Made by a program: the position numbers and the translations under genes. The notes beneath the pieces were generated by a model. The model saw nothing but the letters and a program-made list of their open reading frames with translations, did not search any database and was not told the DNA's origin. 64,000 bases of DNA from Eledone cirrhosa (taxonomy: Eukaryota): contig OZ024753.1 in assembly GCA_964016885.1 (NCBI GenBank), positions 10,044,001 through 10,108,000 of the forward strand, in the 5' to 3' direction. This document shows positions 2,600 through 61,971 of the stretch, in pieces. Within the stretch, counting starts at the first letter, position 1; each line of letters opens with the position of its first letter.

Positions 2600-2654
2600 T
2601 GGATATATATATTTAATATGTATAGTTATGTAATAAACAACATAAGGCAATTAT

Positions 2655-2712
2655 TCCATTTACCAGTGGTTTCTTAAAAGCAAAAAATTTTGCTTTCAAT
2701 CCTCAGAATGAA
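2655..2712 (-). ncRNA. Type I hammerhead ribozyme motif (family A, minus arm)
   Basis: Reverse complement of the 2728-2785 motif. Confidence 0.75.
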
Positions 2713-2727
2713 AAAATCCTGTTTTTT

Positions 2728-2785
2728 TTCATTCTGAGGATTGAAAGCAAAATTTTTTGCTTTTAAGAAACCACTGGTAAATGGA
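2728..2785 (+). ncRNA. Type I hammerhead ribozyme motif (family A)
   Basis: TTCATT-CTGAGGA-stem II TTGAAAGCAAA/TTTGCTTTTAA-GAAA-CCA C TGG-TA-AATGGA; full core, predicted cut after GUA at 2779. Confidence 0.78.
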
Positions 2786-2884
2786 ATAATTGCCTTATGT
2801 GGTTTATTACATAACTATTAAGCTCTGTTACCTACATAGAGCACTCTTTTTTCCTGGACTTTTCCGACGGAATTACTTCATTTA

Positions 2885-4222
2885 TAGAATCAAAAGGCCT
2901 TAAAATTAACCTGACTAAGACTAAAGTTCTAGTTTGTAAGAAAGAAAATAAGGCGGTGGTCCCTTCCGGGAAGTGGCCATGCTCAGTGTGTAGGAAAGGC
3001 GTAGGTAGAAACTCCATTTTGTGTCCCAAATGCAAAGTATGGGTGCATAAAATATGTAGTGGGATACATGTGGCCGGTGCTCTGGTGCAATAAGTAGCAG
3101 CAAGTGCCCACAAAATACTAGCTCTTTCAACTGCGCAGAGGGTTCTATAGAAATAGTGGACAGCTTCCGTTACCTGGGTGACAAAATCAGCAGTGGGGGA
3201 GGGTGCTCTGAAAGTACAGTAGCTAGAGTCAGAACTGGATGGAAAAAGTTCAGAGAGCTTATACCACTATTAGCCGCTAAAGGGTTCACCCTAAAAATGA
3301 AAGGCAGGTTGTATGATGCCTGCATACGAACAGCAATGTTGCATGGCAGTGAGACCTGGGCATTGTGTGCAGAGGATATACGCAGACTAGAGAGGAACGA
3401 AGCTTGCATGCTCCGCTGGATGTGTAATAGTAATATACGTGAACGGCAAAGCATAAACGAACTAAGGAAAAAATTAGAAATAAGAGGGATCAGATGTTGT
3501 TTACTCGAGAGAAGGCTACATTGGTATGGTCACGTGATGCGCATGAAAGACGATAGCTGTATAACAGGGCAATAAAGATAGACGGTAGCCACGGAGTAGG
3601 CAGACCCAGAAAAACCTGGGACGAGCTGATAAATTCCGACCTCACACACTTACACCTCTCCAAGACAATGTCACTGGACCGAGACCTTTGGCGGTACTCA
3701 GTAATAGAGAAGACCCGCCTTACCTAAATACAAAGTAAAACCTACTACAGTCAGTAGGCATCTCTAACAAAATACACCCCTGTCCCACCACCTCCATCCC
3801 ATCCACACCGTCCCTTTCAATGTAAAGTTATGTTGGTGCCACAACACCCAGGCCGAAACAAATGAGATCGTGTAGGTGTCACGACAAAAAACACACAGTC
3901 CACGCTGTAATGTGGCCGTGTAGGCAACACGGTAAAAACCTCCCAGCCCCACTCTGTAAATGTGGTTGGTGTTAGGAAGGGCATCCAGCCGTAGAAAACC
4001 CGCCAGACAGTCCACGCTGTAATGTGGCCGTGTAGGCAACACGGTAAAAACCTCGCAGCCCCACACTGTAAATGTGGTTGGTGTTAGGAAGGGCATCCAG
4101 CTGTAGAAAACCCGCCAGACAGTCCTATGCGAGCAAGACAATCACTCTTGCCTCAAGTGGGAAATACCCCCGTCCAAACCCATGCAAGCGTGGAACACGG
4201 ACGTTAAACGTTGATGATGATG
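2885..4222 (+). mobile_element. 5'-truncated RTE-clade LINE (RT C-terminus plus 3' UTR)
   Basis: KGLKINLTKTK, Cys-rich insert, FRYLG, LHGSETW, RRLHWYGHVMRM, GRPRKTW; frameshifted; (GAT)n tail. Confidence 0.92.
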
Positions 4223-20562: not shown

Positions 20563-20704
20563 CCAAAGATTAATATTATTCGTTGATTATTCAATGAATA
20601 TAATTTTACAATAGATTAGAAGCACTCGACAGTAAAATTTTCCTGGAGTATTTAATATCATTCAAAATATTAATAAATGAAAAAATATTCTCATAATCAC
20701 AATA

Positions 20705-20771
20705 TATATTTTATTATACATATTTCAAAGGTACAATGGTGTTTAAGTACGTTTTCATCAGACAAAATATA
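20705..20771 (-). ncRNA. Type I hammerhead motif (family C, minus arm of hairpin 20676-20932)
   Basis: Reverse complement of the 20838-20904 motif with one loop change. Confidence 0.7.
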
Positions 20772-20837
20772 AGATTTGATATGCGGCATACCGCTACGGT
20801 TTTGATTACTCAATTCCAATAGTGCCACTATTGGAAT

Positions 20838-20904
20838 TATATTTTGTCTGATGAAAACGTACTTAAACACAATTGTACCTTTGAAATATGTATAATAAAA
20901 TATA
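20838..20904 (+). ncRNA. Type I hammerhead motif (family C)
   Basis: TATATTTTGT-CTGATGA-AAACGTAC...GTACCTTT-GAA-ATATGTAT-A-ATAAAATATA; 10-bp stem I and quasi-palindromic stem III. Confidence 0.72.
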
Positions 20905-21171
20905 TATTTTGATTATGAGAATATTTTTCATTTATTTGAATAATAATTATATATATATATATTCATTATTTTAAATAATTTGGCAGTATCGGTAGAGGGT
21001 TGGACGCCATGCTTTGACACATAGAGTTACGGCCCTTGCTATTCTGAGTTCAAATCCCGCCGAGGTTAGCTTTGCCTTTCATCCTTACGGGGGTCGATAA
21101 AATAAAGTACCAGTAATGCACAGGAGTATTGCTGGCCTTGTGCCAAAAGTAGAAACAATTATTTTGAATAA

Positions 21172-21287: not shown

Positions 21288-21323
21288 TCTTAACGTTTCG
21301 GACACTAGTCTTTCATCAGAAGA
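21288..21323 (-). ncRNA. Minimal hammerhead motif (family B)
   Basis: Minus strand TCTT-CTGATGA-AAGACTAGTGTCC-GAAACGTT-AAGA; palindromic ACGT stem III as described for Penelope-associated minimal hammerheads. Confidence 0.65.
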
Positions 21324-21764
21324 AAGAATGAGAAATAGGAGGGAGGCACAGAGCAGGCTTTGTTTTCAAATGGCTAGCGAATTTGAAAATTAGGTAGTAA
21401 CATGTGCTTACACCGTATTTGGCTACATAGAATTAGTTTGTTAGTTGGGATTTTAAAAAAACCCTTTTGGATGGAAAAAAGGATGAGTATTGACGTACCT
21501 GTTTGTAAACAAAGCTTGCTTTGTGTCTCCCTATTTATATACATATATAAATACTTGCTATGCTCATATAGCTTCTAATTGAATGGGAGGCAGCATGGGT
21601 GGCGTGTTGGTGTAATGGTAATACATTGGTTCGGCAAACCAAAGAAGTGGATTCATGTCCTATGTACGTTAACACCCATCCTTTTTTTCCATTCAGAGGG
21701 TCTTTTAAAATCCCAACTTACAGACTAATTCTATGTAGTCAAATATGGCGTAAACACATGTATA

Positions 21765-49364: not shown

Positions 49365-49688
49365 TCATCATCATCATCATTTCATTTTACGTCCGCTTTT
49401 TACCTGCTTGCAAGGGTGGGACGGGAACTGATACTGGCTTGATTTCTACAGCTGGATGCCCTTCCTAACACCAACCTCATTTACAGTGAGTGCTGGGTGC
49501 TTTTTTGCCGTGGTACCTCCACGACCACTTTGCAGTCCCTATCATCTCATTTCTACAGCTGAGTAAACTGGAGCAATGTGAAATAAAGTGTCTTGCTCAA
49601 GGAAACAACACATCACCCAGTCTGAGAATTGAACTCACAACCTTTCGATTGCAAGGCCAATGCTCTAACCACTAAGCCATGTGCCTCC
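49365..49688 (-). mobile_element. SINE family 1 copy
   Basis: As 2265-2599. Confidence 0.9.
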
Positions 49689-61503: not shown

Positions 61504-61563
<60 letters not shown>

Positions 61564-61673
61564 AAATATATGTGTGAATGAAGTATTTTCGTCGGAAAGG
61601 TACAGGAAAAAAGAGTGCTCTATGTAGGCTACAGTGCTTATTAGTTATGTAATAAACAACATAAGATAATTAT

Positions 61674-61733
61674 TTCATTTACCAGTGGTTTCTTGAAGGC
61701 AGATGTATGTCTGTCTTCAGTCGTCAGAATGAA
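61674..61733 (-). ncRNA. Type I hammerhead motif (family A, minus arm of hairpin 61642-61880)
   Basis: Reverse complement of 61788-61848 with small stem II loop differences. Confidence 0.72.
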
Positions 61734-61787
61734 TAAATAACATGGTGTTTTTCAAATCCATATTTAATAAAAACACCATGTTATTTA

Positions 61788-61848
61788 TTCATTCTGACGA
61801 CTGAAGACAGATACAACATCTGCCTTCAAGAAACCACTGGTAAATGAA
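61788..61848 (+). ncRNA. Type I hammerhead motif (family A)
   Basis: TTCATT-CTGACGA-CTGAAGACAGAT ACAAC ATCTGCCTTCAA-GAAA-CCA C TGG-TA-AATGAA. Confidence 0.75.
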
Positions 61849-61971
61849 ATAATTATCTTATGTTGTTTATTACATAATTAAAATATATGTAAATATATAT
61901 CAGATAGGGTTTTTGTGTGTTGTGTGATGGTGTAGGACAGAACAAAGGGAGAGACGCAAAATAAAAATCCA

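Follow-up and report, generated by a model that had tools for sequence, protein, structure and literature searches.

Head-to-head hammerhead motifs in the Eledone cirrhosa genome as the footprint of truncated Penelope-like element insertions

The two hairpins with head-to-head hammerhead ribozyme motifs in a 64,000-nucleotide stretch of the genome of Eledone cirrhosa (contig OZ024753.1, positions 10,044,001–10,108,000; this whole stretch is referred to as the window) are 5′-truncated insertions of two sister subfamilies, A and B, of one Penelope-like element (PLE). Very probably each of them is a truncated insertion of a PLE of the Hydra clade with two terminal repeats (pLTRs) joined head to head, likely brought about by a double nick of a (TA)n target and two starts of the reverse transcriptase (RT). 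The family is new and its kind is known, head-to-head hammerheads being the described and ordinary footprint of truncated PLE insertions. An earlier note on this DNA rightly regarded the hairpins as ribozyme-bearing retro-insertions of the PLE type, the terminal repeat indeed preceding an ORF with RT and GIY-YIG motifs; its further proposal of a separate ORF-less element had to be given up, the hairpins being truncated copies of a family that does carry an ORF.

All four arms of the two hairpins (4/4) hold a full type I hammerhead core, as was seen both by reading of the two loci and in a descriptor scan: the NUH cut site, the core boxes and the three helices are all present; stem I comprises 6–7 bp, stem II is long, and stem III is a 4-bp palindrome with a 1-nt loop. 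C3, N7, A17 and the cut positions are given in what we take to be the numbering of the hammerhead core. At locus 1 the tail-less inverted pLTR arm of subfamily A (2622–2721, minus strand) contains the motif at 2654–2713 with C3 at 2706 and the predicted cut after A17 at 2661, and ends 39 nt past this cut. The tail-bearing arm (2722–2886, plus strand), which is the 3′ end of the element, contains the motif at 2727–2786 with C3 at 2734, core boxes at 2734–2740 and 2767–2770, the palindromic stem III at 2770–2778 and the predicted cut after A17 at 2779; its tail of 63–68 nt (2819–2886) is bounded by both fixed end points. The TA-rich left flank (2607–2621) is a remnant of the (TA)n target in which a target-site duplication is unreadable. 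On the other side a fragment of a LINE-type RT frame (2887–3490) abuts the tail, with no TA tract in between.

Locus 2, which belongs to subfamily B, has the tail-less inverted arm on the plus strand (61748–61881; C3 61794; predicted cut after A17 at 61842; end 39 nt past the cut) and the tail-bearing arm on the minus strand (61577–61754; C3 61727; predicted cut after A17 at 61680), with an overlap of a few bases between the two at the centre. The tail occupies about 61577–61640, a short (CA)n run lies right at its junction (61571–61576, minus strand), and the (TA)n tract that served as target adjoins at 61505–61561. The hairpin described earlier at 61642–61880 is thereby confirmed as a hairpin and corrected in its extent, its tail reaching about 61577. 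The other structural observations of that note were borne out as well: in addition to the full core in every arm, one arm is longer at both loci (it extends 63–68 nt beyond the +39 end of its partner), the core and stems I and III are kept between the loci, N7 changes from G (locus 1) to C (locus 2), and stem II is unlike in sequence with its pairing retained.

The motifs are no product of chance and the descriptor is specific: it found 27 matches in a genome sample of 790 kb (79 evenly spaced 10-kb pieces) versus 0, 0, and 0 in three block shuffles. No hammerhead model of Rfam matched over 2715–2830 at E ≤ 10, and none was among the 150 of 203 matches listed for the window; for the hairpins the Rfam scans returned hairpin and microsatellite noise. 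The window is rich in microsatellites, has tRNA-like Rfam matches at 21601–21671 (plus) and 49618–49681 (minus), which are probably SINE heads, and between about 38000 and 44000 is low in GC and has a strong GC skew (−0.65 to −0.68), which probably marks a tandem array. It also contains a third head-to-head pair at 20703–20950 (C3 at 20761, minus, and 20848, plus) from another hammerhead family, which has a TA-rich palindromic stem III and six relatives in the 790-kb sample, and two lone motifs at 21319 (minus) and about 61975 (plus) from two further families. The latter motif adjoins locus 2 and is degenerate; in L061 a relative of it comes after a fragment of a GIY-YIG ORF.

The family is abundant. 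An 18-mer spanning stem III had 9,586 exact matches in the genome versus 0 for the reversed control, and searches with the arms of locus 1 and locus 2 gave 876 and 2,361 candidates, respectively, the 40 that were scored for the locus 1 arm being 97–100% alike. Scaled from the 790-kb sample (L121–L199) to a genome of 3.0 Gb, the seven family loci found correspond to about 26,500 (95% range 10,700–54,700), and the 27 intact motifs of all hammerhead families, about nine in number, to about 102,000 motifs (67,000–149,000). Among the first 100 exact matches there were, within 1 kb, 15 head-to-head pairs, 1 tail-to-tail pair and 0 same-strand pairs. L203 (G000:C1:3570818-3571085) is a rare example of a tail-to-tail pair that has both tails, and head-to-head pairs occur also in two other hammerhead families (L150, L157).

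When the family is followed upstream, the tail in full-length copies continues into a 5′ UTR and then into an ORF. Copies attached to an ORF, for which the earlier note had suggested to search, are thus found: in L111 and L112 the pLTR sits before an uninterrupted frame of 711 aa with RT and GIY-YIG motifs, the start codon being about 225 nt past the predicted cut, and uninterrupted frames of at least 711 aa are present in 3 of the 10 candidates fetched. Subfamily A has 156 exact repeat-to-5′ UTR junctions. For subfamily B there are 12 such junctions, 11 of which were examined: in L241 and L244 a hammerhead of the B type stands before a broken frame with 65–92% identity to the A protein, whereas L240 belongs to the A type and the remainder have little or no such ORF. 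Direct pLTRs, hammerhead inside, flank the ORF in L061, L111, and L115, the distance from pLTR to pLTR being 3.8 kb in L115 and 4.7–5.1 kb in L111 and L061, both of which have nested inserts; the unit is thus not of the short length (<3 kb) which the consulted part of Craig et al. (2021; PMC8557442) gives as a tendency of the Hydra clade. In L018, L115, and L084 a pyrimidine tract ending in CAG, kept in both subfamilies, lies about 140–150 nt upstream of the predicted cut and looks like the splice acceptor of a retained PLE intron. L238 (G000:C2:169702717-169703470) consists of five tandem 183-bp units of tail plus 5′ UTR; it was considered as a retrozyme and rejected, its units having no hammerhead.

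The 711-aa protein contains RWK (R37-W38-K39), DKT (D114-K115-T116), YRDD, a CxCX5C linker (C556-C558-C564), a GIY-YIG-type Y..YxG and CxxC-E-N-CxH (C659-C662, E665, N681, C690-H692), a motif set that is diagnostic of the Hydra clade according to the compared part of PMC8557442. The key residues are 80–100% conserved, and the GIY-YIG residues Y577, Y595-x-G597, E665, and N681 97–100% conserved, among 119 aligned relatives. The protein has 1,336 relatives among 8,000 scored; of the 120 matches listed, 118 were aligned, and all 120 are annotated as unnamed or "hypothetical". The predicted structure has a pLDDT of 93.7, and its top three folds in Foldseek are telomerase RTs, the TM-scores being low (0.2–0.4); a GIY-YIG structure was not among the Foldseek matches listed. 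Pfam found neither an RT (RVT_1) nor a GIY-YIG domain in the 711-aa protein, in ORF pieces or in whole ORFs of the family, a GIY-YIG match obtained with ORF pieces belonging to another element nested in L061, and a sequence search of the PDB with the 711-aa protein returned nothing. Atlas neighbours of the protein carry RVT_1 and GIY-YIG (PF01541). A homodimer prediction for residues 1–480 scored 0.00, which has no weight in either direction. Judged from the D..YRDD motifs and the predicted folds, the protein is a telomerase-like RT; a putative GIY-YIG endonuclease is assigned to its C-terminus by motif, and membership in the Hydra clade is assigned from the protein motifs and the (TA)n preference.

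The anatomy of the insertions is defined by two fixed ends. Among 60 loci of subfamily A and 30 of subfamily B the 3′ ends are bimodal, lying at about +39 and at +101 to +107 relative to the predicted cut, while values of +112 come from overshoot, the reference having a TA flank there; these loci are biased to whole, young arms because they were the best matches to the query. Of 42 directly joined pairs, 38 consist of one tail arm and one tail-less arm and 4 depart from this layout; in L222 both arms are tail-less. The centre junction differs from insertion to insertion, the 5′ ends are variable, the flanks are (TA)n, and both ends of the insertions show a TA match of 2–4 bases to the target. 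An apparent clustering of the 5′ ends just upstream of the hammerhead is true of the best-match loci and fails in pattern-picked and random loci, in which the 5′ ends range from +52 to beyond −180. Several insertions have just one or no whole hammerhead. In L030, L086, L196, L200, and L211 the tail-less arm has at least 30 nt which the tail arm does not possess; for L086 and L200 there is no sequence at all that the two arms have in common.

The two arms of an insertion stem from one source lineage. N7 is equal in both arms in 24/24 true A pairs (17 G/G, 7 T/T; Fisher p = 3e-6; one cross-pair between two neighbouring L020 insertions is left out) and in 13/13 B pairs (12 C/C, 1 T/T), and therefore both arms must have come from the same lineage. 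Thereafter the arms of one insertion decay separately: minor alleles are found in a single arm 99 times and shared 19 times (3 private) in A, counts to which a false cross-pair and some of the junction columns contribute, and 48 times versus 2 times in B. The variants which had been thought private to each locus occur in many other copies and are markers of the subfamilies, and the "covariation" reported between the two loci is likewise the difference between two subfamilies, which are 82–85% alike.

Across 22 variants, 93.4% of the cells are paired as compared to 35–54% in slid controls, and 4 of the 9 stem II pairs have changed on both sides, in related sequences that were picked for an intact core. 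Shuffles equalled this in 0/500 cases for cells and in 30/500 for pairs. Since these changes go back to a few subfamily splits among related sequences, the covariation gives modest support to selection in active lineages, not in the hairpin copies. Conservation of the core is no independent test, a near-intact core having been the criterion by which rows were selected; that the 11-base core is unchanged between A and B at 82–85% overall likeness is weak evidence.

The insertions have likely come about as follows. The GIY-YIG domain would nick both strands of a (TA)n target; one nick would prime reverse transcription at the tail site (+102 to +107) and the other at +39, in each case by way of 2–4 TA bases that pair with the RNA; the two cDNAs would end early and be linked to each other at the centre, in many cases through short AT-rich microhomologies. 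For another PLE it has been found in vitro that two RT start sites bound the tail and that nicking and extension occur on both strands, ribozyme cleavage being unnecessary (Frangieh et al., 2024; PMC11167929, in the part considered here). The hammerhead is the element's normal motif, is predicted to dimerize via its palindromic stem III and is probably of relevance solely in RNA transcribed from full-length source copies; the hairpin copies carry it as a passenger, which the predicted fold-back would bury.

A second route to the same structure from the same element is self-priming, a fold-back model put forward in PMC3846280 (as far as the part used here goes), in which the cDNA or antisense template would prime on itself at a short palindrome to give the inverted arm. 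It would fit the agreement of the arms at N7 and the many near-symmetric centres, situated at a T4-A4 palindrome some 90 nt upstream of the cut. As the origin of the inverted arms it is nevertheless unlikely. Because the tail-less arms of the five insertions named above have at least 30 nt lacking in the tail arm, they are no copies of it, and in two of these the arms do not even overlap; moreover, a tail-less arm would be unable to supply a tail, and the fixed +39 end is more simply explained as a start than as a stop site. Fold-back may have given rise to the symmetric centres.

Far less probable is that the hairpins are a non-autonomous, retrozyme- or MITE-like element, mobile as one unit and retained for the sake of its two ribozymes or of its double-stranded RNA. 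The hairpins at both loci are long and near-perfect, there are thousands of copies, and animal retrozymes have been proposed to be PLE derivatives (bioRxiv 10.64898/2026.07.22.740005, in the part compared), but a unit should not change its centre from insertion to insertion, have its minor alleles mostly in one arm, or lack one or both whole hammerheads in several insertions, and tandem direct hammerhead repeats were not found. A DNA MITE is rejected on the variable centres and 5′ ends, the one-sided tail and the link to an RT ORF; the uniform TIR/TSD structure by which the earlier note would have recognized an ordinary DNA MITE was looked for and is absent. A non-LTR retrozyme is rejected on the 15 inverted versus 0 same-strand pairs mentioned above. 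That the hairpins are a read-through chimera of library or assembly can practically be dismissed: the palindrome is near-perfect, and four DNA runs of one study, which showed the family's ends, gave no short-read contig that spans the whole stretch; yet the arms differ by point changes and end at the fixed family position, the flanks are unrelated, and dozens of loci as well as published PLEs have the same layout. Two primed starts at a doubly nicked (TA)n target are therefore the reading we prefer.

What this means for the ribozymes can be seen from the predicted energies. It is correct that either strand encodes one ribozyme together with its antisense, as had been stated; in the transcript, however, the predicted fold-back would far outweigh the ribozyme fold (−143.5 kcal/mol for the hairpin 2622–2820 versus −12.4 kcal/mol). 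Both window motifs co-fold into a predicted double-hammerhead dimer of −32.8 and −32.4 kcal/mol, as compared to about −24 kcal/mol for two monomers (2 × −12.4). Since the hairpin dwarfs the ribozyme fold, and since in several insertions a whole hammerhead is present once or not at all, the pairing of ribozymes looks like a side effect of the points at which copying ended.

Full-length A copies carry, 1.2–1.8 kb before the terminal hammerhead, a second, tail-less hammerhead in the 3′ UTR (L111:5787-5893; L112:5333-5431; L115:8500-8598; L061:3774-3844). Position 17 is G in 28/29 of these second copies and A in 55/55 tail arms and 64/65 other arms; to our knowledge, NUG sites are not cleaved by hammerheads. 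The second and the terminal copy co-fold into a double hammerhead in L115, not in L111. The plain reading is that the G17 copy is a fixed old insertion; a description of a second 3′-UTR hammerhead copy with a G cut site was not found in our literature search.

The tail junction has a further peculiarity. Two or more CA repeats lie directly at the junction in 38/120 tail ends (5/23, 7/21, 8/14, and 10/29 in the sublineages, all four of which have them, and 8/33 unassigned), two or more TG repeats in 1/120, and a (CA)n run at the +39 junction in 1/78, whereas 2,856 background TA runs are preceded by CACA and TGTG about equally (152 and 150). The runs sit between element and (TA)n, e.g., in L020, L099, and L103, and once a C run is found there. 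Stuttering is possible because the template at the tail start site reads ...UAUACAG. We therefore mention, as a tentative and rather doubtful idea, that the RT may stutter like telomerase, copying ACA repeatedly at one start site ahead of the tail and thereby adding (CA)n to the target, and that the G17 hammerhead, its own cut site being dead, may be the in-cis dimer partner that enables the terminal cut. The (CA)n may as well have been inherited from read-through flanks of source copies, with slippage in addition. Neither (CA)n at PLE tail junctions nor repeat addition at PLE junctions was found described in a literature search that covered few subscription papers.

With its intact ORFs and an estimated 11,000–55,000 loci, this young family of the Hydra clade offers a large natural record of PLE insertion, and for some insertions at least it favours two independent primings rather than simple fold-back. 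The (CA)n at the junction and the G17 partner are two leads to how a relative of telomerase starts copying and to the role of the ribozyme in PLEs. If the stuttering is true, the RT would seed microsatellites at thousands of loci.

The comparisons that follow refer to the parts of the cited sources that were considered. The inverted copy with a tail has been described for PLEs by Craig et al. (2021; PMC8557442), whose supplement shows Penelope-13_HM with an inverted 5′-truncated copy, both strands bearing the same hammerhead. With the C-terminal-endonuclease PLEs of the Hydra clade in that paper the Eledone family shares the protein motifs, the targeting of (TA)n, an additional base on each side of stem II and a stem III that is palindromic, 4 bp long and closed by a 1-nt loop; the stem III pairs are even identical to those of Hydra-1_Obim from octopus, of which stems I and II are different. 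Because stems I and II differ from those of every hammerhead in the compared part of the table in PMC8557442, we consider the family as new. It also differs by a longer stem II (9–11 bp), a tail of 63–68 nt rather than the published 30–40 nt, a microsatellite-rich 3′ UTR with a second hammerhead, and a copy number far above that noted for Hydra-1_Obim.

Cervera and de la Pena (2014; PMC4209133) reported dual motifs 100–700 bp apart on opposite strands and tied the dispersed motifs to truncated PLEs. The minimal, dimeric hammerheads of that work resemble those in Eledone in the large helix II, the weak palindromic helix III and the predicted dimer; however, stem III is longer in Eledone, and stem II opens with U-A after U/A or C/A positions, whereas G10.1-C11.1 is typical there. 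Poseidon from the green anole (Frangieh et al., 2024; PMC11167929) is similar in having two internal RT starts, an AT-rich target and extension on both strands. It belongs to another clade, however, and its ORF overlaps the hammerhead, whereas the Eledone ORF begins about 225 nt downstream; the TA match of 2–4 bases at both ends is found in the Eledone family, unlike in Poseidon. Finally, with the non-LTR retrozymes of animals (PMC7229834; bioRxiv 10.64898/2026.07.22.740005) the family has in common the type I hammerhead, the PLE origin and the high copy number, but retrozymes are direct tandem repeats that give rise to circular RNAs, whereas the Eledone insertions are inverted pairs with variable centres.
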